A stretch of DNA of 64,000 bases, from positions 276,403 through 340,402 of the forward strand of contig JBAZRH010000001.1 of NCBI GenBank assembly GCA_041663045.1, written 5' to 3'. Of this stretch, positions 9,486 to 63,855 are shown piece after piece. The stretch's first letter is position 1. Each line of letters begins with the position of its first letter. A program made the position numbers and the translations under genes. The notes under the pieces are model-generated. The model did no database searches and was not told the DNA's origin. It saw nothing but the letters and a program-made list of their open reading frames with translations. This DNA comes from Minisyncoccota bacterium (GTDB lineage Bacteria > Patescibacteriota > Minisyncoccia > Phycocordibacterales > GWA1-40-21).

Positions 9486-9947
9486 ATGTCGAGTATGAGT
9501 ATACATAAAATAATTAAAGACGGAATAAAAGAAGCGATGTTGAAAAAAGATGTATTAAGGCTTACGGTGCTTCGCGGAGTATCTTCTGCCTTTACAAACG
9601 AAATAATCGCAAAAGACATAAAAGGAGATGAATTGGGAGATGAAGAAGCTCTTGCAGTTATACGAAGACTCGTAAAACAGAGAAAAGACTCTATCGAACA
9701 ATTTACAAAAGGTGGCAGACCAGAGCTTGCAAAAGCTGAAGAAGCCGAGATGAAAATACTTGAAGCTTTCTTGCCACAAATGATGAGTGAGGATGAAGTG
9801 AGAAAAGTTGTGGAAGCGAAAATCGCTTCTGCCGGAAATGTGGATAAAACAAAAATCGGACAATTTATCGGCTCCGTGATGAAAGAACTTAAGGGGAAGG
9901 CGGATGGAGCAGTGGTGAAAAAGGTTGTTGAGGAATTGGTGAAATAA
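9486..9947 (+). CDS. yqeY: GatB/YqeY domain protein
   Basis: YqeY-like helical domain (LTVLRGVSSAFTNEII...ELAKAEEAEMKILEAFLP). An upstream GTG at 9459 is possible, but the ATG at 9486 is more likely. Confidence 0.7.
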   Translation: MSSMSIHKIIKDGIKEAMLKKDVLRLTVLRGVSSAFTNEIIAKDIKGDELGDEEALAVIRRLVKQRKDSIEQFTKGGRPELAKAEEAEMKILEAFLPQMMSEDEVRKVVEAKIASAGNVDKTKIGQFIGSVMKELKGKADGAVVKKVVEELVK

Positions 9948-10070
9948 AAGCTCCCTCCCATCACTATTTTCCACCAGTGTGCCTTCATCCCGAAGAAAAT
10001 CATAATCGCTGTTCTATACGAAAAATCCCAGAGTCGCTCCCGCACCTCCCGCCCGTGAGGTTTTTCTGTT
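9948..10070. repeat. Intergenic repeat, family B copy 1
   Basis: Shares ccattttc(c/t)caccagtgtgccttca...gaaaatcat..tcgctgttctatacgaaaaatc with 42128-42320 and, inverted, 53500-53645. Confidence 0.75.
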
Positions 10071-10681: not shown

Positions 10682-10797
10682 AATATTAAATTGTTTAAAC
10701 TAAAATCTCGAACCCTGAATTTACCTTCTTACAGAAGCCGTATACCTATTCTGTTTTATATTTCGCTTCACTCATATAAAACCATCATAGGTCTTTC

Positions 10798-10950
10798 ATT
10801 TGGGTCCCTTGCCCAAATTTCAACCTCTCGAAGGCCGTGTCCTAGTCACAAGTCAAAGTCTGCTGACTTTGCTTGCGACCCCCTCTCGTGCCGTCGCACT
10901 CCGATCTTGCGGTTGGGTCCCACCCCAACCTCACGTTAGACGATGAGGCC
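10798..10950 (-). pseudogene. Degenerate tRNA-Glu-like pseudogene with a roughly 93 nt insertion in the D-loop
   Basis: The reverse complement begins GGCCTCATCGTCTAACG and ends TAGGACACGGCCTTCGAGAGGTTG, homologous to the tRNA-Glu 5' half and anticodon arm. The T-arm and acceptor 3' half are replaced by a tttgggtccc...gggacccaaa hairpin that also occurs inside the repeat at 63645-63735. Confidence 0.55.
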
Positions 10951-24929: not shown

Positions 24930-25029
24930 TAAACACGTTTGTAAGCGACCGAAGCCCCGCCATTTTCTCACCATTGCCGAAAGCTCCCTCCACCCACTTT
25001 CTCTACGATCTAGCGGACTCTGTAAGTTA

Positions 25030-25207
25030 GCGAGCGAGGATTTATAAATATCTTTGCTAGGGGTGGCGAGCCTGCCCCTTTTGAAATGCCTTGGGAGCGC
25101 GACGGCGCGAGCACGAGGAATTTTCTAGCAAGAAAATATCCGTGCATTTCAAAAGGGGCAGGTCGACAGGACCCCGTGAAAATATTTATCAAAACCCGAG
25201 CGAGTTT
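25030..25207. repeat. Long palindromic intergenic repeat, family C copy 1
   Basis: tttgctaggggtggcgagcctgcccctttt...aaaaggggcaggtcgacaggacccc with the central gcgcgacggcgcgagca. Flanked by agcgagcgagg and cccgagcgag. Confidence 0.75.
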
Positions 25208-26307: not shown

Positions 26308-26486
26308 AAAAAGTTGAGGATTTGTAATTTGTTGTGTCCGCAGGCTCCTTTTCTGGTGCGATGTGGTGTAATTTTGCGAGAAGTAATCTTTGAGCAAAAG
26401 TATACCACATCGCAAGCCGCCGAGGATTAGGAAATTTTTCGGCTGGGAAAAATTTCTGCACAACAAATTGTAAATCCTCAACCTTG
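26308..26486. repeat. Long near-perfect palindromic repeat, family A copy 1
   Basis: aaagttgaggatttgtaatttgttgtgtccgcagg...ggtgcgatgtggtgtaattttgcgagaagtaatctttgagcaaaagtataccacatcgcaagcc...ctgcacaacaaattgtaaatcctcaacc. Confidence 0.8.
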
Positions 26487-28730: not shown

Positions 28731-28888
28731 ACAGCCGAAAGACGGCTTTAGAAAGCCATTTTTCGGCTAGGCGAGCGAGTCGGGTGCTTTTAAAAAGCAT
28801 TGCACAGCGCGACGGCGCGAGCATAGCAAAAAGCCAGCAGGCTTTTATGCGCGGTTTTTAAAAGCACCCGATGAGCGAGCCGTCTTGA
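28731..28888. repeat. Long palindromic intergenic repeat, family C copy 2
   Basis: cagccgaaagacggc...gagcgagccgtcttg outer arms, gggtgcttttaaaaagc / gcggtttttaaaagcaccc inner arms, and the same central gcgcgacggcgcgagca as 25030-25207. Confidence 0.75.
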
Positions 28889-32085: not shown

Positions 32086-32361
32086 ATAAAGTAGATAAGT
32101 CGGTGCCTCAATGAATGGGTGTCATTGGGGGCTGAACCCGAACATACCCGAAGTCAAGCTGGGTGCACTTCCATCCCAAACTCAAAAACAGAGTCTAAAG
32201 GAAGCGCAATTGGGAATCAAAGCTGACAACCGTCTTGCATACTATTTTATTTATAATGGAGTGTAGGCGGTTTTTCTTTGGGTGAATTCTGGTGGGCCGA
32301 TTTTTCAACCTCGTTCTGACGGGTTGAAAAATCGGCCCCAATCTGTCATTATGTAACAATA

Positions 32362-40609: not shown

Positions 40610-42127
40610 ATGCCATATGAAGATATAATTTCATTGATGGACTCACCATCGAAAGATGATGTAGCGCTTATAAAAAAAGCAACAACTTTTGCTGAAGAAG
40701 CACATAAGGACATAAAGAGAAAATCTGGTGAACCTTATTTCAACCATGTCTTTGAGACAGCTAAAACTCTAGCAAGCTTCAAGACTGACTCTGCAACGAT
40801 AGCTGCAGGGCTTTTACATGATTCAATAGAAGATGGTGTGGCGACAGAAGAAGAAATAAAGAAAGGATTTGGAGATGAAATACTCTTTTTAGTAAACGGG
40901 GTTACAAAGCTTGGAAAAGTAAAGTATCGAGGAGCGGAAAGACATATAGAAAGCTTGAGGAAATTCATGGTGGCAATGTCACAAGATATTCGAGTACTCA
41001 TCATTCGTCTTGCCGACCGTCTTCATAATATGAAGACTTTACAATATGTCCGACCCGACAAACAAAAGAGAATTGCCCTTGAAACTCTCGAGATTTACGC
41101 ACCACTCGCCTACCGTCTTTCTATAAGGAAACTTTCACGTGAGCTTGAAGACCTCTCGTTTGAATATGTAAGCCCAGAGGAATATGATGGTACAGTAGTT
41201 CTCTTAAAACAAAAGAAAGACGAGACCTTACCACGATTGGAGAAATTTATAAAATCTGTAAAGAAAGCCCTAGCTAAGGAAAGAATGACAAATATAAAAA
41301 CAGACTATAGGCAGAAAGGAATATATAGTCTCTTTCAAAAACTCAAATCTAAAGGAAACGATATAGAAAAGGTCTATGATATATTGGCGTTGCGTGTAAT
41401 GCTACCCGATGTCCAAGATTGCTATAAAGCTCTCGGAATAATACACGGTGTGTGGAGACCGCTTCCAGGAAGAATAAAAGATTATATAGCGTTTCCAAAA
41501 CCAAACGGCTATCAAAGCTTGCATACTACAGTTTTCACTGGTGACGGTTCAGTAGTAGAAGTACAGATAAGAACGGAAGAAATGCACAGAAATGCTGAAT
41601 TCGGTATCGCCTCTCATATTTCATACAAAGATAGTCACAAAAATGGGAACAAAAGTTCTGATATTGATTGGTTTAGACAATTTCTACCAAGGACTATTAA
41701 TTTTGCAAAGGTAAATAAATTAAATAATAAAAAAGAAATGCCAGAGTGGATTACAGAACTTGCTGATTCTCAAGATGGAATAAAGACTAGTGGAGAAAGA
41801 GAGGAATTCTTAGAAGATCTAAAGGCCGACTTCTTCTGTCAAAGGATTTTTGTGTTTACACCAAAAGGAGAGGTAGTAGATTTGCCTACTGGTTCATCTA
41901 CTCTTGATTTCGCATATGCGATTCATTCTGACGTAGGGGACCACGCAAGTGGAGCGAAGATAAATGGCAAACTCGTAGCCATGAAAACAGAATTAAATAA
42001 TGGTGATATTGTAGAGATTAGCACAAGTAAATCTAGTAAACCAAGTTCCAAATGGTTGGAAATTGTAAAGACGAATATGGCGAAAAGACATATTAATAAT
42101 TATTTGGAGAAGCAGAAGAAAAAATAA
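40610..42127 (+). CDS. rel: Short bifunctional RelA/SpoT-homolog (HD hydrolase + synthetase + TGS domains)
   Basis: HD motif HDSIED, synthetase region (RIKDYIAFPKPNGYQSLHTTV) and a TGS domain. No ACT domain. Confidence 0.85.
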   Translation: MPYEDIISLMDSPSKDDVALIKKATTFAEEAHKDIKRKSGEPYFNHVFETAKTLASFKTDSATIAAGLLHDSIEDGVATEEEIKKGFGDEILFLVNGVTKLGKVKYRGAERHIESLRKFMVAMSQDIRVLIIRLADRLHNMKTLQYVRPDKQKRIALETLEIYAPLAYRLSIRKLSRELEDLSFEYVSPEEYDGTVVLLKQKKDETLPRLEKFIKSVKKALAKERMTNIKTDYRQKGIYSLFQKLKSKGNDIEKVYDILALRVMLPDVQDCYKALGIIHGVWRPLPGRIKDYIAFPKPNGYQSLHTTVFTGDGSVVEVQIRTEEMHRNAEFGIASHISYKDSHKNGNKSSDIDWFRQFLPRTINFAKVNKLNNKKEMPEWITELADSQDGIKTSGEREEFLEDLKADFFCQRIFVFTPKGEVVDLPTGSSTLDFAYAIHSDVGDHASGAKINGKLVAMKTELNNGDIVEISTSKSSKPSSKWLEIVKTNMAKRHINNYLEKQKKK

Positions 42128-42320
42128 ACTCCCTCCGCCCCGCCATTTTCTCACCAGTGTGCCTTCACCCCAAAGAAAATCATAGTCGCTGTTCTATACG
42201 AAAAATCAAGAACTCGCCACATCAGAATGTGTCTCAAACAACTTGATTTTTCTAAACAGCTCTTTGATTTTACTTGGGGTTCTCGGCAATGGTGAGAAAA
42301 TGGCGGGGCTTCGGTCAACA
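42128..42320. repeat. Intergenic repeat, family B copy 2 (long palindromic form)
   Basis: ccgccccgccattttctcaccagtg...caatggtgagaaaatggcggggcttcgg arms. Its core matches 9948-10070 and, inverted, 53500-53645. Confidence 0.8.
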
Positions 42321-42336
42321 GTTGACTCCACAAAAA

Positions 42337-43323
42337 CTAAAGCGAGAAGTTTTTCACCGAATACATATCCTCATTTTCTTCATCGGCTTTCTTTTCTTCC
42401 GCACTTCTATCATCTATCGGCGCCTCCTCCACAACAGGCTTTATCTCCCCCACTTCTGTAATATGTTTATTGAGCAATTCATCCACCTTCCTCTTTTTCT
42501 GATTTTCCACCATATCAAGTATGGCGCGTAAATCTTCATTTGAGAAAAAGTCTATAGTAATCTTCCCTCCGTTTTGCCCCTTTTCTATATGAACTCTCGT
42601 ACCAAGAGAATCTGTGAATTTCTGTTCGAGTGATGTAATTTCAGGATCGATAATAATTTCTTTCTTCCTTGCTTTATCAAAAGCGATTTTTCTGGCAATA
42701 AGTTCGGCATCGCGCACTGTCATCTTCTTATAAAGAATTTCTTTAAATAAAGTCTCCTGTTCGTCTTTCCTGTCCAAAAGCATAAGAAGTGGGCGTGTAT
42801 GTCCCTCGCTTATTTTTCCTTCCCTAAGGGCCAAAAGCATATGCTGTGGCAACAGTAATATACGAAGGCTATTAGATACATATTCCCTACTCTTGCCCAT
42901 TTTCTGGGCAATCTGGATATGTTTAAGACCAAATTGATCTGCAAGCTGTCTAAATGCTTCGGCTCTATCCACAGCGTTCAAATCTTCTCTTTGGAGGTTT
43001 TCAATGATAGCGAGTTCAAGCTTCATCAGATCTGATTCGTCTTTTGAACGAATAACTACAGGTACTTGAGGAATACCCGCGATCTTTGATGCGCGAAGTC
43101 TGCGTTCACCGGAGATAAGCTCATACTCAACCAAAATACCATCTTCTTTAACTATTTCATTTCTTGTGACAACAAGGGGCTGGAGAACACCATATTGCTT
43201 AATAGATTCAGCAAGGTCTTTGAGCTTAAGTTCGTCAAACTCCTTTCTTGGTTGATACGGGTTCGGCTTTATTTTATCTGTCTCAACCCAAAATATTGAA
43301 TCGCTAAAAAACTGTGATGACAT
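42337..43323 (-). CDS. parB: Chromosome partitioning protein ParB
   Basis: ParB box GERRLRASKIAGIPQVPVVI, an HTH and a C-terminal dimerisation domain. Likely start is MSSQFFSD at 43323; the longer ORF extension would overlap tRNA-Leu. Confidence 0.85.
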   Translation of the reverse strand: MSSQFFSDSIFWVETDKIKPNPYQPRKEFDELKLKDLAESIKQYGVLQPLVVTRNEIVKEDGILVEYELISGERRLRASKIAGIPQVPVVIRSKDESDLMKLELAIIENLQREDLNAVDRAEAFRQLADQFGLKHIQIAQKMGKSREYVSNSLRILLLPQHMLLALREGKISEGHTRPLLMLLDRKDEQETLFKEILYKKMTVRDAELIARKIAFDKARKKEIIIDPEITSLEQKFTDSLGTRVHIEKGQNGGKITIDFFSNEDLRAILDMVENQKKRKVDELLNKHITEVGEIKPVVEEAPIDDRSAEEKKADEENEDMYSVKNFSL

Positions 43324-43401
43324 AATTGATATTATTTTAGCACATAAAAAGAATCTATTAAAATTGATTTTTGTGTATAAATTGTGTAGTATTTGGGTGA
43401 T

Positions 43402-43485
43402 GCCGGAGTGGCGGAATTGGTAGACGCGCACGACTCAAAATCGTGTTTCGAAAGGGGTGAGGGTTCGAGTCCCTCCTCCGGCACA
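43402..43485 (+). tRNA. tRNA-Leu (anticodon CAA), long variable arm
   Basis: GCCGGAGTGGCGGAATTGGTAGACGCGCACGACTCAAAATCGTG...GGGTTCGAGTCCCTCCTCCGGCA. The anticodon loop is CTCAAAA. Confidence 0.85.
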
Positions 43486-46815: not shown

Positions 46816-46848
46816 AAAGGGGCGCGCCTTACGGCGCGCCCCCTCCAT
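46816..46848 (-). terminator. Terminator following rnpB
   Basis: ggggcgcgcc-ttac-ggcgcgcccc. On the minus strand it is followed by TTTCTCATTATT. Confidence 0.6.
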
Positions 46849-47203
46849 AACCTTTATACCTATAAGCCGAATTCTGTCTCCTACTTTTTACAGTAAGTAG
46901 ACGGTCATCTATCTGGGCTACTGATTACTCAGTCGCTCAAGCGGCGCTCCAAGCATCAAATGGTGCTCGGCACGGCCTTGCACAGAGGTAAGGATTTTGT
47001 CGTTGCACTTCTGCGTCTCCGCAAAATTATTCCCGAAGGAATCCTAGCCTTTCGGCATCGGCGTCACTGTTCGCACCTCTTAGATTGCTCTAGACGGGCG
47101 TTACCCGCTACCCAAATCCATCCGCCCGAAGGCGTACGCTGTGTTCGGACTTTCCTCCAGCTATTTGCATAGCCAGCGACCATCCAATACAAAGGCAAAA
47201 TAA
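46848..47203 (-). ncRNA. rnpB: RNase P RNA (bacterial type)
   Basis: The reverse complement contains GGAGGAAAGTCCGAACAC (the P4 5' strand GGAAAGUCCG), GGGTAACGCCCG, AGATAGATGACCGTCTAC and the 3' region GACAGAATTCGGCTTATAGG (P4 3' strand ACAGAAnnCGGCUUA). A TTGCAT-N17-TATACT promoter sits upstream on the minus strand. Local GC is about 50%. Confidence 0.85.
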
Positions 47204-53003: not shown

Positions 53004-53149
53004 GATTGATTTTTAAGGAGTGAAATGACTATAAAAATCATCACCCTGCGAAATGGAGTTTGCTTTGGCAAACGACATATTTCACTGGGGTCTATTTCAC
53101 TTGGTTAATTATATCATAATAAAATACTGACAAGTAGGGCGGGTGTGGA

Positions 53150-53312
53150 GAAAAAGCTCATTCACATCCCCGCTTTTCTGTGCAGAAATTTTCCCCAGCC
53201 GGAAAATTTCCTAATCCTCGGCGGCTTGCGCTGTGGTATACTTTTACTCGAAGATTACTTCTCGCAAAATTACACCACATCGCACCAGAAAAGGAGCCTA
53301 CGGACACAGAAA
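53150..53312. repeat. Family A repeat copy 3 (inverted orientation)
   Basis: Reverse complement of the 26308-26486 and 61520-61757 cores: ctgtgcagaaattttccccagccggaaaatttcctaatcctcggcggcttgcgctgtggtatactttt...ctcgcaaaattacaccacatcgcacc...ggacacag. Confidence 0.8.
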
Positions 53313-53499
53313 AATGGGGACGTTCATTCGCTTACAGCAGAAAAATACGGCTTTGTAAAGCCATACTTCATAAGCGAGCGAGATTCTCAATTTTCTAGCA
53401 TTGCCGAGAACCCGTGATAGAAGCAGTGTTCACTCTTATATTAGCTTCCTCGGCTCGGAAATGAAAAAGGAATTTTCATTTCTCTCGCTCTACGTCGCT

Positions 53500-53645
53500 A
53501 ATAAATCAAGGAGATGTTTAGAAAAATCAAGTTGTTTGAGACACATTCTGATGTGGCGAGTTCTTGATTTTTCGTTAAGAACATCGACTATGATTTGACT
53601 CTGGTGAAGGCACACTGCTAGAAAATTGAGAATCGAGCGAGCGTT
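53500..53645. repeat. Family B repeat copy 3 (inverted orientation)
   Basis: gagacacattctgatgtggcgagttcttgatttttcg is the reverse complement of the 42190-42230 segment. Ends with gaatcgagcgagcg. Confidence 0.8.
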
Positions 53646-56116
53646 TAAATCAAGGTTACCGACGCAATACTATCCCCTTCTCTTAATTTCATAACTCTCA
53701 CACCCTGCGTCTGCCTACCGAGCGAAGGAATTTCTTTGACCGCCACGCGTATGACCTGACTCTTTTTTGAAATAGTTGCGATTTCGTCTTCGCCGTCTGT
53801 GACGACTTTTGCGGAAATAATCTCCCCCGTTTTTGGTGTAACTTTCATGGTCTTGATACCAGACCCGCCTCTCTTTTGCACTTTATATTCTTTGAGTGGA
53901 GTTTTCTTTCCATAACCGTTTGAGCTCACCACGAGAAGCTCCGGATTCTGCATTGTTTTTGAAATAATGGCTGTACCGACGACAGTATCCCCTTTTCCAA
54001 GCTTTACACCACGGACACCAGAAGCATTCCTGCCCATAACGCGAATATCTTTATCTTTGAATCTGATAGATTGCCCTTTCGATGTGGCGATTATCGCCTC
54101 GTCGCCGTCATTCATAAAGAGCGCCGACTGAAGCTCATCTCCTGCATCTAGAGTGATGGCTATCAAGCCGTTTCTACGAACGTCTTTGAAGTTTTCTGCA
54201 TCCACCCTCTTTGCCGTACCGTTTTTCGTCACAAAGATAAGTGAGAGTTTCAAATTCTTCATCGCCTTTGGCATAGCAAGGACAGAAGTGATTTTCTCCT
54301 CACCAGAAATCGCCAAGTAGTTTACAATCGCCTTGCCTTTTGTCGCTCTCTTACCTTCTGGCAATTCATACATTTTTATTTGATACGCCTTTCCTTTGTC
54401 TGTGAAGAAGAGAATATCATTGTGTGTAGAAGCAGTAATAAAATGAGTAATAAAATCTTCATCTTTTGTATCAAGGTCCACCACTCCCACCCCACCCCTC
54501 TTCTGCTTTCTGTATTCGTCTGGGTTTGTCCTCTTTACATATCCGCCAGCAGTAAGGACGAGCATACTTTCTTCGTCTGCTATCAAATCTTCATCTGAAA
54601 GTGTCTGTACTCCGCCTTTTATAACTTTTGTCCTTCTCTCATCGCCGTATTTGGCTTTGATTTCAAGAAGCTCGGACTTAACTATTTCGAGAATTCTCTT
54701 TGTCTTTGCCAAAATATCTTTCAAATCTTTTATAAGGGCCTGCACGGCAGAAAGCTCATCTTCGATTTTCTTTCTCTCAAGTCCGGCGAGCTTCTGCAAA
54801 CGCATTTCAAGAATGGCATTGGCTTGGATTTCCGAAAACTTAAATACTTTCATGAGCTGTGCACGAGCGTCATCTACGTCTTTTGATTTCTTTATAAGTT
54901 TGATGATTTCGTCTATATGATCAAGCGCCTTTTTCAAACCAAGCAAAATATGCTCTCTCGCCTCGGCCTTTTTCAAATCAAATTCTGTCCTCCTTTTTAC
55001 GACAATCTTTCTATGATCTATGAATTCTTCCAGGAAAGAAAGGAGTGAAAGTGTCTTCGGTACGCCGTCTACAAGAGCGACAAGGTTGAAGTGAAATGTC
55101 TCCTCGAGCTGTGTATGTTTATACAAATAATTCAAAACGCTTTGTGGCTGAGCGCCATTTTTGAGGTCAACGACAATACGGATGTCTTTTGCAGACTCAT
55201 CACGCAAACCCCTTATACCTTCTATTTTCTTTTCACGGACAAGCTCGGCGATAGCGATGATAAGCTCGGCTTTGTTGACCCTATAAGGTATCGAGGTGAT
55301 TATTATCTGAAATTGACCTTTTTTGTCTTCTACTATTTCGGCATGACCTCTCGTCACCACCCCTCCTCTACCTGTGGAATATGCGTGGTTGATATCTGTT
55401 TGATTGTAAATCATCCCGCCTGTCGGAAAATCTGGCCCTTTTATAAATTTCAAAAGGTCTTCAGTGGTAGCATCTTCATTGTCTGCCAAGTGAATAGTTG
55501 CATCGATCACCTCTCCAAGGTTGTGCGGGGGGATATTCGTCGCCATACCGACAGCAATACCGAGAGTTCCGTTTAACAAAAGGTTCGGCACACCGGCTGG
55601 AAGGACGGTTGGTTCTTTTTTGGTATTGTCATAGTTGGGCTTCCAATCAACGGTTTCTTTTTCCAAATCTTTCAGCATTTCACCGGCGATTTTTGACATC
55701 TTCGCCTCGGTGTATCTCATAGCGGCGGCTGAATCGCCGTCTATGTTTCCAAAGTTTCCCTGACCGATAATATGCGGATATCTAAGTGAGAAATCCTGTG
55801 CCATTTTGACCATAGAATCATAGACAGCAACATCGCCGTGCGGGTGATAATTTCCAAGTACTTCTCCGACCACAGCGGAAGATTTCCTTGTCCTTGCACC
55901 TGCGGTAAGGTTCATTTGGCCCATGGCATAAAGGATTCTTCTATGCACTGGTTTCAAACCATCGCGGACATCGGGAAGGGCGCGGTCTGTGATGACAGAC
56001 ATGGCATAGTCGATAAATGACTCTTTCATTTCGGTCGTAATGCTTCTGTCGGAAAGAGCTCTATGCTCTATTTTTACAGCTTCCTCTCCATTTCCTTCTG
56101 ATTTGTTTTTCGCCAT
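53645..56116 (-). CDS. gyrA: DNA gyrase subunit A
   Basis: [14 protein letters not shown], the active-site Tyr region, and C-terminal beta-pinwheel repeats. Confidence 0.9.
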
Positions 56117-57274: not shown

Positions 57275-57706
57275 TTACTTGAGCAGAATCGCTGTGCAGA
57301 CGAAGTGTTCGCCTTCACTGCCATCGATTTCAACCGAATCCGTGAGGGTTTCGACGGCTTTCGTCTGCTTTTTGTCATCATCACTCATCTGGTCGAATAC
57401 TTCCCCAATGTCTGGCTTGAGGAAGAAGCGAGAAGACGATTTGACAAGAAAACGAATTCGTTTGAACTCCTTTAAACCATCGACGAGTTCGTCGGGCTTG
57501 AAGTCGAACGTGTGCGATATACCCCGAGGGTTCTTGCGGATTTTTTCCATCGTATCTTTGTCTGCCGTATAGTAGCCCACAACACTTCCTTTCCCTTTGT
57601 GGGTTTCAGACACGATGAGAATTCTGCTAAGTAACTCGCGAATCTCATCAGATGACGTCCTTTTGTAGTTGCTGTACAGAACTTTCGTATCTATTTTATT
57701 TCCCAT
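57275..57706 (-). CDS. Hypothetical protein (143 aa), higher GC
   Basis: ORF with a downstream terminator. No motif recognised. Confidence 0.5.
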   Translation of the reverse strand: MGNKIDTKVLYSNYKRTSSDEIRELLSRILIVSETHKGKGSVVGYYTADKDTMEKIRKNPRGISHTFDFKPDELVDGLKEFKRIRFLVKSSSRFFLKPDIGEVFDQMSDDDKKQTKAVETLTDSVEIDGSEGEHFVCTAILLK

Positions 57707-59181: not shown

Positions 59182-59307
59182 AAGCTCGCTCGGATATCCA
59201 ATTTTGAGACCCGCATTCCGCCATGGGCGGATGATCCCTCTCCCGCCGTCGCGGTCCGTAACTCTCAAAATTAAATATCCTCGCTCGTTTACTTGCAGAC
59301 AAATTCA

Positions 59308-59429: not shown

Positions 59430-60143
59430 TCAAGTTTGGATTTCCTTGGCCAAGAAACGCCACGTCTTACAGTGATTCTCTTTCATCCAAAGCTCCGATA
59501 TATTGTCAGAACAATGAATTGTGCGTTTGTTAACACAGAATCCGACTTGACCTATAGGGGTGGTCCCGTCCTGTTCAGTGCTTACTTCCTCTCTCTTGAA
59601 ACTAAGTGCCGCCCTATCCCACTCACCAGTTTCTGGATTAGCAGTAAGTGCTTTGATAGACATTCTATCCACCAATTCTGGGTATCTTCTGATAAATCCC
59701 AATACTTCGACGGGAGTTAGGAATGCTAGATTATTCTCATCGATATATAGGACTACATCCCCGTAAGACATAACCTGATCTTCTGGTGGAAAAATCTTGT
59801 AGACAACCTCTTCGATAACACAGTCGTCACTAGGACTATCCCCCTTAAGTTCCCCTAAGAGCTTATTCTGATTTATGCCAGGATGCACAAAGCCACGTAC
59901 TTTTTTCAATTCTCCGACAAGGAAGTCGGGTGTATCGCAGTGATTTATATCCACTATGTATACACCATCTCCGAATGGATTCGGATCACCTCGTAGGAAA
60001 CGTTTGAAAGCGTTCCCCCAGAAGCGAGCATTTTTGTTACCACTCAACCTTTCGAGAAGGTCAATGATCACACCGAAAAAGTTTTCCGGTAGACCACCAA
60101 GCATCTCAACTATCTTACCGAGCATGTCAGATTTTTTAGACAT
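59430..60143 (-). CDS. Hypothetical protein (237 aa), higher GC
   Basis: Long ORF with its own terminator. No motif recognised. Confidence 0.5.
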   Translation of the reverse strand: MSKKSDMLGKIVEMLGGLPENFFGVIIDLLERLSGNKNARFWGNAFKRFLRGDPNPFGDGVYIVDINHCDTPDFLVGELKKVRGFVHPGINQNKLLGELKGDSPSDDCVIEEVVYKIFPPEDQVMSYGDVVLYIDENNLAFLTPVEVLGFIRRYPELVDRMSIKALTANPETGEWDRAALSFKREEVSTEQDGTTPIGQVGFCVNKRTIHCSDNISELWMKENHCKTWRFLAKEIQT

Positions 60144-60898: not shown

Positions 60899-61145
60899 AC
60901 TAATAGTGTAATGCTAAAGACTGAAAAAGTAAAATACTAAAAATTAGTCCGAAAATATAGCTAAAGATAGACTTACTTTGTCGCCCCCAAACTGCTTGAC
61001 AATAAGGACAGATGGGTGTATACTACTAAACAGGAGTATTGGGGTGTAAATGGCTTGTCGCTGTTCATCTTTGATACAAATGATATTTGAAAACGGGTAT
61101 CGCTACCCTTTGGCTAAAAAGCCGTTAGTGAATTTGGAGGAAAAA

Positions 61146-61448
61146 ATGGATAAGATGCTCAAAATGATGTTATTTTTTGTACTTGGGTCCGTCCTGAGTT
61201 TCTGGGGTTTTCATATCGTCTTTGAAGAAAGTATGCACTACGCTTTTTTCGAGACTATAGTCATAGGGATGTTTATACTTGCAAATGACAGTATAACAAA
61301 AAAGGCAACGGTGGATAGAGAGTCTTCGCGTGCATTATACTACTCATTGTGGTTGGTCTTTATAACTACCATGGTTCCATTACGGATAGGGGTCTATTGC
61401 GGTATTATTGACAATGCAAGTGCTTTCGTCTTTAAGATCGTGCCGTGA
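61146..61448 (+). CDS. Small membrane protein
   Basis: GGAGG RBS 6 nt before the ATG at 61146. Three TM helices. A terminator follows. Confidence 0.5.
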   Translation: MDKMLKMMLFFVLGSVLSFWGFHIVFEESMHYAFFETIVIGMFILANDSITKKATVDRESSRALYYSLWLVFITTMVPLRIGVYCGIIDNASAFVFKIVP

Positions 61449-61519: not shown

Positions 61520-61757
61520 TTCGTAAGCGAGCGAGACTTGTGATTTTTGAGCATTACATGCTTTAATCTATTTCATGAGCGAGCGAGTATTCCGATTTTG
61601 TTGTGTCCGCAGGCGAGCTTGCATGGTGCGATGTGGTGTAATTTTGCGAGAAGTAATCTTCGAGCAAAAGTATACCACATCGCAAGCCGCCGAGGATTAG
61701 GAAATTTTTCGGCTGGGGAAAATTTCTGCACAACAAAATTGGGATACGAGCGAGCTA
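61520..61757. repeat. Family A repeat copy 2
   Basis: About 95% identical to the 26320-26475 core. Flanked by three CGAGCGAG motifs (61523, 61577, 61746). Confidence 0.8.
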
Positions 61758-63582: not shown

Positions 63583-63855
63583 AAGCTCGCTCATATCACT
63601 ATTTTCCTGTGCAGAAATTTTCCCCAGCCGAAAAATTTCCTAACTCCTTACAGGAGCAGTACACCTTTCACATTTTGAGTACAAAACGTTCAAGGTCTTT
63701 TATTTGGGTCCCTTACCCAAATCTCAACTCGGCGGCTTGCGCTGTGGTATACTTTTGCTCGTGAATACACTTCGCAAAATTACACCACATCGCACCGCAC
63801 AAGCTCGCCTGCGGACACAGGAAAATAGTAATATTCGCTCGCTTATCGCTTGCAT
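63583..63855. repeat. Family A repeat copy 4 (inverted) interrupted by a roughly 90 bp insertion
   Basis: The arms match 53150-53312. The insertion (about 63645-63735) contains tttgggtcccttacccaaat, shared with the pseudo-tRNA region at 10798-10820. Confidence 0.75.

Follow-up and report, generated by a model that had tools for sequence, protein, structure and literature searches.

Family B is a genuine repeat, present as four copies or fragments in the window, by which we mean the whole 64-kb stretch of DNA analysed. Judged by its sequence, it is non-coding and represents one core type of a lineage-specific superfamily, sharing a closing helix with the families A, C and S. We consider it probable that Family B is a non-coding, hairpin-forming interspersed repeat, a MITE/REPIN-like non-autonomous mobile element of this superfamily in Paceibacteria (CPR). 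Hairpin repeats of this kind are ordinary, and it is the conserved stem base that is unusual.

The exact 13-mer CAGTGTGCCTTCA occurs three times in the window, at 9975 (+), 42155 (+) and 53605 (-). When the repeats of the window were compared, B2 and B3 had 94 nt in common at 95% identity and B1 and B2 had 86 nt at 80% identity, and the similarity between copies was far above chance. A preliminary description had proposed three copies; the repeat and its three sites were confirmed, and a fourth, partial copy had been missed. The copies, together with the genes flanking the intact one, are the following:

42129-42315, + strand: B2, the intact Family B element, a 187-nt rod hairpin occupying the whole convergent rel/parB spacer
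42137-42155, + strand: left closing arm of B2, GCCCCGCCATTTTCTCACC, pairing perfectly with 42291-42309
42291-42309, + strand: right closing arm of B2, GGTGAGAAAATGGCGGGGC, the partner of 42137-42155
40610-42127, one flank of B2: rel (Pfam)
42337-43431, other flank of B2: parB, convergent with rel
9948 to about 10028, + strand: B1, the 5' half of a Family B element (base, left arm and 5' core) with the yqeY stop codon directly 5' and the right arm missing
53372-53644, - strand: B3, a full Family B element with a nested insert, starting directly past the gyrA stop codon
53414-53502, + strand: the 89-nt insert within B3, holding a nested mini-element of about 60 nt
24947-24990, - strand: B4, a Family B stub (3' arm and right base, …GGTGAGAAAATGGCGGGGC TTCGGTCGCTTAC) just downstream of a complete C-type element, C1

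The palindromic arms described for the copy beside rel proved exact, and the gene names yqeY and rel were correct. The first copy had been given as 9948-10070; its start is right, but only the 5' half is present, and its similarity to the other copies stops at CGAAAAATC. Its core is identical to that of B2 at 51 of 54 positions. The inverted copy had been placed at 53500-53645, upstream of gyrA. An inverted copy is indeed present, but it is longer, and the placement was wrong, as B3 lies downstream of and co-directional with gyrA (53645-56116, - strand). B3 has its own self-complementary set of arms (ATTCTCAATTTTCTAGC), and the mini-element nested in its insert, at roughly 53441-53501, has a 10-bp stem, an orientation opposite to that of B3 and the base motif CTCGGCTCG ... 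TCTCGCTCTAC. The arm of B4 is identical to that of B2. An independent Logan assembly (L001, sample SRR18595301) carries an identical rel followed by the first 57 nt of B2, where its contig ends within the repeat, so that the junction between rel and B2 is no artefact of the window.

Open reading frames do run across the copies and have a similar peptide stretch (FSYRTA.MIFFG.KAHW) in common, as had been noted before:

42151-42333, - strand: ORF over B2, 60 aa
53401-53598, + strand: ORF over B3, 65 aa
9422-10045, - strand: ORF over B1, 207 aa, antisense through yqeY

These ORFs are the only point in favour of a small conserved protein encoded by the repeat, a reading that we regard as hardly credible. 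Substitutions between the copies are spread evenly over the codon positions in all six frames (3/4/4 in the frame originally considered), the copies differ by a frame-breaking 1-nt indel, a premature stop (MI*) interrupts B3, and neither starts nor stops of the ORFs are conserved. The 60-aa peptide had zero homologues among about 5.8 billion predicted proteins, and the 207-aa ORF is antisense to yqeY. Family B shows no synonymous excess, conserved frame or homologues, as a protein-coding gene family would. Peptide conservation accompanied by synonymous variation, which was to count against a non-coding repeat, was looked for and gave a negative result, so the non-coding interpretation survives, with the peptides a by-product of nucleotide identity. 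There was also no sign of the predicted mis-annotation as a conserved protein family.

Family B had further been called unrelated to the other repeat of the window. This did not hold, as Family B has the whole closing helix in common with families A, C and S. The window contains no fewer than 11 elements that are closed by one and the same helix, with cores of four kinds (A, B, C and S), and the superfamily makes up 3.1% of the window. The elements outside Family B, and the gyrA terminator, are as follows:

53154-53333, + strand: A1, Family A, its closing helix built in the same way, with CTCATTCA/TTCATTCG as variant of the base
61577-61757, - strand: A2, Family A, followed by a solo right arm and base at 61520-61555
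63583-63844, + strand: A3, Family A, directly after the hisS stop codon, with an unrelated insert of about 85 nt
26311-26484, - strand: A4, Family A, after frr, lacking the base motif
25027-25207, - strand: C1, C-type, directly after the rseP stop codon, its core including CTCGCGCCGTCGCGCTC
1395-1574, - strand: C2, C-type, occupying the spacer in which an exonuclease-like gene and yceG/mltG converge
59182-59290, + strand: S1, a small element separating the terminator of an S1-domain protein gene from its stop codon
28769-28882, - strand: S2, a small element 12 nt past the mreB stop codon
57029-57182, + strand: S3, with the base variant CTCCCTCG/CTCGGTCG
53344-53370, - strand: intrinsic terminator hairpin of gyrA, TATGGCTTT ACA AAGCCGTA and then TTTTT, flanked on its two sides by the right ends of B3 and A1

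A1 thus faces the gyrA terminator hairpin with its right end from the side opposite B3. The closing helix reads 5'-AAGC[TC]GC[TC]G, 7-8 variable bp and ATTTTC on the left arm, and GAAAAT, the variable stretch and C[TC]GC[TC]GCTT-3' on the right. Its base is AAGCTCGCTCG ... CTCGCTCGCTTAC, and the 5' tag of the bottom strand is (G/A)TAAGCGAGCGAG. The inverted repeat that closes each element is 25-30 bp long; only the 11-nt base and ATTTTC are constant in it, while the 7-8 bp between them differ from copy to copy and stay complementary. Over 10 elements, 85% of the cells in this helix were paired, as against 59% after shuffling and about 44% with the partner slid. Sixteen of 19 pairs changed on both sides, which was reached by none of 500 shuffles. 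In the same 10 elements the eight mismatch positions of the TC/TC mismatches at the helix base, which are tandem G·A on the other strand, were invariant. What is kept at the base is pairing and not identity: B2 and S3 have CC on the left against GG on the right, and copy 2 of L006 has the reverse, GG on the left against CC. The elements are moreover mosaic: B2 and B3 are 97% identical at the apex and about 45% identical in the closing stem, both stems being self-complementary, and B1 has a stem that hardly differs from the A3 stem.

B2 is predicted to fold as a single rod-like hairpin, with -87.9 kcal/mol as RNA (z = -11.6) and -54.2 kcal/mol as DNA (z = -11.2). The bottom strand gave the better fold in 11 of 11 elements, also in the three that are oriented opposite to the neighbouring genes. 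The defects of the closing helix, read on the top strand, comprise 15 A·C against 5 G·T, and the top strand contains 27.7% C and 18.9% G, the reverse of the bias of the upstream genes. The difference between strands is partly compositional, as shuffled bottom-strand B2 was also about 8 kcal/mol better, and with DNA parameters the two strands of B2 differ by just 2 kcal/mol. The 3' flank of the bottom strand is T-rich (GCTTTTATTT, GTTTATTTTTT and similar). On that strand a T-run follows the B2 helix, but the adjoining helix base is mismatched. A consensus scan of 41900-42500, covering B2 and its surroundings, called no intrinsic terminator, neither in B2 nor in the sequence around it, and no promoter was found in or beside B2 in the same interval.

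A co-directional stop codon precedes 9 of 12 elements, and 7 of 9 start within 0-1 nt of it. The elements sit between stop codon and terminator, or replace the terminator between convergent genes. The host belongs to the Paceibacteria (CPR), and relatives, with 64-88% identity in the flanking protein used for retrieval (GyrA or Rel), have the same gene order by synteny comparison. No element was present in these relatives at three orthologous sites: behind gyrA, behind the S1-domain gene and in the rel-parB spacer. The spacer after gyrA is 217 nt in the relative L002 versus 641 nt here, the stop codon of the S1-domain gene is followed directly by the terminator in relatives, and the rel-parB spacer of relatives is about 60 nt with a plain terminator versus 209 nt here. 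Since relatives with the same gene order have only a plain terminator at element sites, the copies are lineage-specific insertions. The base signature had four weak, chance-like matches in about 1 Mb of related loci, versus eight true elements in the 64-kb window, and BLAST of the elements against the rel loci of relatives gave no matches except fragments of the C-core and the A3 insert. A C-type element in another relative, L163, copies the 3' end of the adjacent tRNA-Trp gene. The C-type core (CTCGCGCCGTCGCGCTC) itself shows conservation across genera.

As a mobile element, Family B would work as follows. The conserved, mismatch-studded base of the helix may be the handle for a trans-acting enzyme encoded elsewhere in the genome, which would recognise the element in folded, single-stranded form, the bottom strand of the DNA being the most likely one. 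On that strand the mismatches would turn into tandem G·A in a 5'-CGAG-3' context and most stem defects into G·T wobbles, and the apical core would be cargo. As side effects, the element would be co-transcribed into 3' UTRs, and B2 would now stand in the rel/parB spacer at the site of a former bidirectional terminator. Cores and closing stems are shuffled between copies, and truncated and nested copies are present. A Pfam scan of the 38 ORFs of the window revealed no transposase, integrase or HUH gene. Three window-specific genes considered as transposase candidates (57275-57706, 59430-60143 and 61050-61448) had no Pfam match, and one of them is a membrane protein. Family B had zero matches in GTDB genomes, JGI metagenomes, IMG/VR, and phage and plasmid collections; because it is absent from every other genome, metagenome, virus, phage and plasmid collection searched, its movement is inferred and not observed.

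Repeats of the MITE type include ERIC/IRU of enterobacteria, Correia/NEMIS of Neisseria and RUP/BOX of pneumococci. Like these, the present elements are non-coding, multi-copy sequences of 100-300 nt, built as long, imperfect palindromes able to fold at the RNA or DNA level. They too occupy intergenic regions, in most cases close behind a gene with which they are probably co-transcribed; some copies are truncated or nested, and related genomes differ in whether they have them. In classical MITEs the terminal inverted repeats are conserved in sequence and a target-site duplication is present (TA for ERIC and Correia). In contrast, the terminus-adjacent stem here varies yet stays complementary, the tandem mismatches are invariant and no duplication is seen; a cognate IS for the elements of the window is not known. 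A general description of MITE-type hairpin repeats transcribed in 3' UTRs is available (PMC3184786). REP and REPIN sequences, whose REP unit is 20-40 nt with a GTAG or CGTC tag, are mobilised by RAYT (Y1 HUH) transposases (PMC3733652). In common with them, the elements are palindromes, presumably recognised by structure, with a short conserved unpaired tag at the stem foot. They occur mainly downstream of genes and between convergent genes, form several sequence families per genome and are probably handled as single-stranded hairpins. Unlike REP, they have units of 110-270 nt with diverse apical cargo, and on the bottom strand both of their arms carry one motif at the foot, GTAAGC-GA-GC-GA-G. 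Hairpins of parvovirus/AAV termini contain (GAGC)n Rep-binding elements, repeats that are read by an HUH protein. A hairpin stem with tandem GAGC tetranucleotides near its base is common to both, which may serve as a lead. In AAV, however, GAGC is fully paired with GCTC, whereas both arms here carry GAGC on the same strand and form G·A mismatches, and the genetic context is entirely different.

Several further models were considered and rejected. The direct repeat CTCGCTCG is not a target-site duplication, as it is part of the helix and its variants (CC/GG, GG/CC and A8-T1') keep complementarity, not identity; for the same reason its left and right 8-mers do not form a lox/att-like recombination core with an 8-bp overlap. 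CTCGCTCG is absent from the empty sites of relatives, and its clusters in L174 and L175 were chance matches in DNA of 75% G+C. No consistent target-site duplication was found around the elements, the TA and TAA options misfitting the right flanks. Insertion into the loop of a native terminator was ruled out because the arm order is inside-out for such a model. Closing arms copied from the flanks, or guiding to them, were dismissed, since no arm recurs in the window and there were no consistent matches to the 40-nt flanks. Two matches to the base signature in viruses were coding sequence, not hairpins, and viral matches to a 16-mer of the C-core came from GC-rich contigs or coding sequence. In TIGR arrays, repeats of 8-12 nt alternate in tandem with spacers of 9 nt, next to a Tas gene with a Nop domain (PMC12045711). 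That architecture misfits elements that are single and dispersed, whose variable segments pair mutually and that have no Tas gene nearby. Rfam 15 gave no match at gathering score in the whole window, with only chance-level hits for B2 and C1 (E about 1 or more). Exact-protein look-ups of YqeY and ParB returned no match, probably owing to start codons that differ from the called genes, and literature searches on CPR repeats gave nothing relevant.

The tight placement of the elements (7 of 9 within 0-1 nt of a stop codon) and their strong structural conservation could point to a host function instead. The elements would then be a cis-acting RNA or terminator module of the host, in 3' UTRs or against convergent transcription, spread by duplication as something useful, and a long bottom-strand hairpin with a T-run abutting the upstream stop codon would stop antisense transcripts before they enter the gene. 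We judge this unlikely. It would account for the 9 of 12 elements that follow a co-directional stop codon, for the T-rich bottom-strand flank and the strong covariation of the helix, and for B2 and C2 filling convergent spacers that lack any further terminator, at sites that hold a plain bidirectional one in relatives. But a normal terminator follows several elements anyway (B3, S1, S2 and C1/B4), and A1, A2 and S3 are placed where neither flanking gene gives useful transcription. The stem is weakest exactly at the T-run, with its tandem mismatches, the terminator scan calls nothing in B2, and close relatives do without such elements. Truncated, nested and mosaic copies are, moreover, typical of selfish repeats. 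A terminator role is compatible with exaptation of a mobile element and is not fully exclusive of the explanation that we prefer. Independently transcribed small RNAs from the bottom strand would agree with its G-richness and better fold in all 11 elements and with a U-run after the hairpin, as in a small RNA with its own terminator. This is very improbable: no sigma-70-like promoter precedes any bottom-strand 5' end, no Rfam match was obtained, the apical domains are unrelated across families, and B3 and A1 stand back to back, their 5' ends separated by no more than about 30 nt and a terminator hairpin.

Integron attC sites (PMC2727003, PMC5027507), whose defining architecture is described in PMC2727003, also lie immediately 3' of an ORF in a fixed orientation. 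They are recognised via the folded bottom strand, which the bottom-strand bias of the elements resembles. Unpaired features that are conserved, stems that covary and a terminal structure that varies likewise recall attC, but neither the bias nor the invariant mismatches prove recombination. The elements might be ORF-less cassettes or scars, that is, structure-specific recombination sites whose folded bottom-strand hairpin serves a tyrosine recombinase. For this speak their position directly 3' of ORFs in the same orientation, their folding bias, and the invariant unpaired nucleotides between covarying pairs beneath a highly variable apical domain. We nevertheless consider it quite improbable, because the helix base lacks the R''/R' core sites (RYYYAAC/GTTRRRY boxes), the window has neither intI nor attI, and the elements form no cassette array and are dispersed among syntenic housekeeping genes. 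Returning to the mobile-element explanation, a more specific form of it, possible though rather doubtful, is that CPR bacteria have an undescribed, structure-specific system for mobilising DNA, which recognises the closing helix and can move any apical cargo. The recognition site would comprise two tandem G·A mismatches in CGAG context with two covarying G-C pairs between them, then a stem of free sequence and an A-tract, and the enzyme would recognise the bottom strand in its folded form, in the manner of IntI at attC or RAYT at REP. Unrelated cores (A, B, C, S and the 60-nt mini form) on one foot, and shuffled cores and stems, would follow if any cargo can be mobilised.

Genomes of CPR/Patescibacteria are generally regarded as small and streamlined. 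In this one, a single hairpin superfamily without counterpart in close relatives accounts for about 3% of the 64-kb stretch, suggesting that a mobile repeat spread in a recent burst. The foot, with its invariant mismatches and covarying neighbours, offers a compact and testable candidate structure, in DNA or RNA, for recognition by a protein, and the enzyme, if found, would be a further structure-specific system for recombination or transposition, in this case from a phylum so far unexplored. The elements create ORFs that gene callers could pick up, and they interrupt short-read assembly, as in the Logan contig that stops inside B2. They have also re-modelled the 3' ends of essential genes, among them gyrA, rel, mreB, hisS, frr and rseP.

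The 13-mer CAGTGTGCCTTCA occurred exactly at 9975 (+), 42155 (+) and 53605 (-), and a repeat finder aligned 42177-42270 with 53503-53596 (94 nt, 95% identical) and 9942-10027 with 42122-42207 (86 nt, 80% identical). The three loci proposed for Family B in the preliminary description were thus real, and a partial fourth copy was found in addition:

Ending near 10028, plus strand: B1, after yqeY, merely the 5' half
42129-42315: B2, in the rel/parB spacer, a near-perfect long palindrome
53644 down to 53372, minus strand: B3, directly 3' of the gyrA stop codon, in the same direction as gyrA, with an 89-nt insert
24947-24990, minus strand: B4, partial, keeping only the 3' arm and foot, both identical to those of B2

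Accordingly, B1 stops short of the end first given for it (10070), and B3 had been given too short a length and placed upstream of gyrA. The palindromic arms reported for B2, GCCCCGCCATTTTCTCACC and GGTGAGAAAATGGCGGGGC, are exactly complementary. B2 folds as a single rod, at -87.9 kcal/mol with RNA parameters compared to -42.6 for shuffles (z = -11.6), and at -54.2 kcal/mol with DNA parameters (z = -11.2). An independent Logan assembly (sample SRR18595301) carries an identical rel gene, and its contig breaks 57 nt into B2; assemblies tend to break at repeats.

ORFs with similar peptides (60, 65 and 207 aa) do lie over the copies, as had been noticed. In the copy alignment, substitutions showed no preference for any of the three codon positions in six of six frames (3/4/4 in the frame originally considered). 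B3 has a 1-nt indel relative to the other copies, with a stop following "MI"; neither the starts nor the ends of the ORFs are conserved; and a search of about 5.8 billion predicted proteins gave no relative of the 60-aa peptide. Family B is a genuine repeat and, as the even codon-position changes, the disrupted frame of B3 and the lack of protein relatives indicate, it is non-coding, in agreement with the preliminary description. No sign of the feared annotation as a "conserved hypothetical family" was found anywhere.

Family B had also been considered unrelated to the other repeat of the window, Family A (53154-53333, 61577-61757, 63583-63844 and 26311-26484; four copies 91-98% alike, with a branched core). 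Instead, at least 11 intergenic elements, named by core type (B2, B3, A1-A4, C1, C2 and S1-S3), were found to have one architecture; these 11 occupy 3.1% of the window (1,995 nt). Further members are the fragments B1 and B4, a solo right end and one nested mini-element. The left side reads (T)AAAAGC-TC-GC-TC-G, 7-8 variable nt, [A/C]TTTT[C/G], 3-5 nt and then the core; the right side is its mirror image, ending C-TC-GC-TC-GCTTAC. Family A shares this closing helix with Family B, A4 excepted, where the stem is present and the base (foot) motif absent. The cores are unrelated between families, branched in A and a rod in B. A motif (C/G)CGCCGTCGCG(C/G) is found in the cores of C and of two of the three S elements (S1 and S2, not S3), and takes the form GCGCCGTCGCGC in C1 and S2.

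An 8-nt direct repeat (CTCGCTCG at both ends) was rejected as such, since it is the foot of the closing helix, whose left G/C positions pair with the right ones and covary. A1 has A-T, T-A and A-T in place of the consensus G-C, C-G and G-C; B2 and S3 have left CC opposite right GG, and an element in the relative locus L006 has left GG opposite right CC, so that in the CC/GG and GG/CC variants pairing is kept and repeat identity is lost. The innermost foot pair of A3 is A-T. The four TC dinucleotides are always mismatched and invariant (T5, C6, T9 and C10, with partners T41, C42, T45 and C46). In an ungapped alignment of the 23 + 23 terminal nt of 10 elements, 85% of cells were paired, compared to 59% in column shuffles and about 44% with a slid partner, and 16 of 19 pairs changed on both sides; none of 500 shuffles reached the observed values. 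A strict scan for the foot signature returned 8 true elements in the window and 4 chance-like weak matches in about 1 Mb of related loci.

Stems and cores do not travel together. Identity between B2 and B3 is 97% at the apex (61/63), about 82% in the middle and only about 45% in closing stem and foot, despite which each closing stem is perfectly self-complementary. The B1 stem (CATCACTATTTTCC) is close to that of A3 (TATCACTATTTTCC), the cores being unrelated, and B2 and B4 carry the same stem at different loci. In two places the right arm and foot of one element lie behind another, complete one (B4 behind C1, the solo end behind A2), and nested within B3, in opposite orientation, is a mini-element of 60 nt that has a foot of its own. 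Such mixed stems and cores, with nested and tandem partial copies, show that modules were swapped between elements and that new copies landed on old ones. Judged from these sequences, the mosaic, nested and decayed copies point to a repeat family with past activity, not a single conserved functional site.

The genes of the window are housekeeping only (yqeY, rel, parB, miaA, gyrA, topA, dprA, serS, hisS, mreB/C, frr, rseP, murJ, pth, lepB and RNase P RNA), and GyrA is 82-88% identical to proteins from uncultured freshwater Paceibacteria/Patescibacteria MAGs. Relatives keep the gene order around gyrA and rel/parB, and at three orthologous sites they have no element. The spacer 3' of gyrA is 217 nt in the relative L002 and 641 nt in the window (B3, terminator and an A-family element). 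In relatives, the stop codon of the S1-domain gene is followed directly by a terminator; here element S1 stands between them. The convergent rel/parB spacer of relatives measures about 60 nt and holds a plain bidirectional terminator (in L169, AAAAAATGGGTTTTCGC-TTCG-GCGAAAACCCATTTTTTT). That of the window is 209 nt, 187 of which are filled by B2, and no other terminator or promoter was found in it. The absence from relatives indicates that the Family B, A and S copies at the compared sites are lineage-specific insertions. Three ORFs adjoining elements, 57275-57706 (-), 59430-60143 (-) and 61050-61448 (+), have no Pfam match, are missing from the otherwise syntenic region in 8/8 close relatives compared, and look like lineage-specific gene insertions.

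Nine of 12 elements lie 3' of a co-directional gene. The foot starts 0-1 nt past the stop codon in seven of these (TAA|AAGCTC...) and 6 and 12 nt past it in the remaining two. In every element having both, the intact right end (…GCTTAC) faces a nearby terminator hairpin at 9-31 nt, a rule that also holds for the three elements that do not follow a co-directional gene; one and the same hairpin stands between B3 and A1. This placement may come from a preference for terminators as targets (their A-tract or hairpin), or from a compact genome in which no other space is tolerated.

We call top (sense) the strand on which the left end reads AAGCTCGCTCG; the bottom (forward) strand is its complement, with the 5' end GTAAGCGAGCGAG. 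The bottom-strand fold was more stable in 11/11 elements, by 3.7 to 37.8 kcal/mol, and contained 64 G·U pairs compared to 12 on the top strand, although copies within one family are not independent in these counts. Shuffled bottom-strand B2 was also about 8 kcal/mol better, so composition explains part of the energy difference, and with DNA parameters the strands differed by only 2 kcal/mol. Defects of the ungapped closing helix were top-strand A·C (bottom G·T) 15 times and top-strand G·T 5 times. The top strand of the elements is richer in C (27.7%) than in G (18.9%), the reverse of what the upstream genes show on their sense strand (16.6% C, 23.2% G). Because three elements oriented against their neighbours keep the same bias, it is a property of the element and not a skew due to replication or transcription. 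Read on the bottom strand, the mismatches that never vary form two tandem 5'-GA-3'/3'-AG-5' pairs within a 5'-CGAG-3' context, which favours stable sheared G·A pairs in RNA and DNA alike. A bottom-strand bias could mark an sRNA. However, no promoter was found on this strand, and the bottom-strand 5' ends of B3 and A1 stand back to back, separated by just the terminator hairpin and about 30 nt. We therefore favour reading the bias as the trace of a folded single-stranded DNA stage.

What is established here are non-coding hairpin repeats, inserted in one lineage, with a covarying foot and invariant mismatches, shuffled as modules and left as truncated and nested copies. We propose that a trans-acting enzyme encoded outside the window would recognise the foot in its folded form, probably that of the bottom DNA strand, and move whatever apical cargo sits above it. 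Inserted elements would then be co-transcribed with the upstream gene, and those in the rel/parB and exonuclease/yceG spacers would take over the terminator's position. A scan of 38 window ORFs gave no candidate mobilising enzyme; nor was a target duplication found at the elements, or Family B in a second genome (GTDB genomes, JGI metagenomes, IMG/VR, and phage and plasmid collections).

In behaviour, the nearest known systems are transcribed MITE-type palindromes (ERIC, Correia, RUP; PMC3184786) and REP/REPIN (PMC3733652); in recognition logic, it is the integron attC (PMC2727003), with which the elements share the position after an ORF and the fixed orientation. Their bias towards bottom-strand folding, their invariant mismatches and their variable terminal structure also resemble attC, although these features do not prove recombination. 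However, they have neither the TSD of MITEs, nor the GTAG/CGTC tag or 20-40-nt unit of REPs, nor the RYYYAAC/GTTRRRY boxes or array of integrons, and no integrase lies in the window. As for the TIR sequence conserved in MITEs, the closing inverted repeats here (25-30 bp) are alike between copies only in the 11-nt base and ATTTTC. They had no Rfam match, and the TIGR arrays of CPR bacteria and phages were ruled out by their different, tandem architecture. The (GAGC)n foot is reminiscent of the Rep-binding element in AAV hairpins. Small hairpin-forming, mobile-looking elements in 3' regions are a well-known kind; what sets this variant apart is its closing helix, its modular cargo and its appearance as a burst in a CPR genome. 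It would be of greater interest should a new structure-specific enzyme turn out to act at the foot.

A core with CTCGCGCCGTCGCGCT(C) recurs in several Paceibacteria genera, and an A/T-rich hairpin (…TTTTTGCTAAAAA…) precedes most copies:

Window: 25027-25207 (-) and 28769-28882 (-)
L006: 805-930 (+) and 5625-5765 (-)
L010: 8448-8565
L012: 4715-4850 (-)
L046: 9835-9950
L163: 12650-12745

The long closing stem differs in each copy, the core strand is constant relative to the hairpin, and no Rfam match was found; on this comparison, the core may be an independent conserved structured element. In L163:12650-12870, one arm of the C-type element repeats 16 nt (GGCCCACGAGGATTCG) from the 3' end of the tRNA-Trp gene beside it, and the other arm is the complement of that copy, so that this end is directly repeated about 150 nt apart, resembling a miniature att-site duplication. 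In L165:1640-1900 (a relative 72% identical in Rel), the rel frame itself ends …AAAAGCTCGTTCGCAAAACATTTTAA, which is foot-like, and a fragment resembling the C-type hairpin sits 3' of the terminator. The C-core 16-mer also occurs in low-G+C IMG/VR contigs (L084, L089, L106, L125, L129, L138, L146), within a conserved stretch (…GGCCCGGACCAGG…CTCGCGCCGTCGCGCTCGCTCCGCTAATGACCTGATCCG) beside AGCTTGA-type tandem repeats; this stretch is apparently protein-coding sequence on the other strand.

The insert of A3 (63643-63727) is a further conserved segment (…ACACCTTTC.CATTTT…CAAGGTCTT…), also found at 10789-10824, adjoining tRNA-Glu, and in L168:12780-12860, from a relative 64% identical in Rel. The leader of a methyltransferase gene, 53004-53110 (-), has blocks GACCCCAG..AAATAT … GGGGTGATGATTTTTATAGTCA kept across relatives (L002:5290-5425; L004, downstream of gyrA) with a variable hairpin between them; it had no Rfam match at gathering score and could be a cis-regulatory RNA. 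RNase P RNA, 46847-47195 (-), is of bacterial class A (113.9 bits), a large part of P12-P14 being absent from the alignment. Finally, a stand-alone hairpin at 32285-32345 (+), GGCCGATTTTTCAAC-loop-GTTGAAAAATCGGCC, has neither foot motif nor core, and its stem follows the "G+C block + ATTTTTC" style also seen in the element arms.
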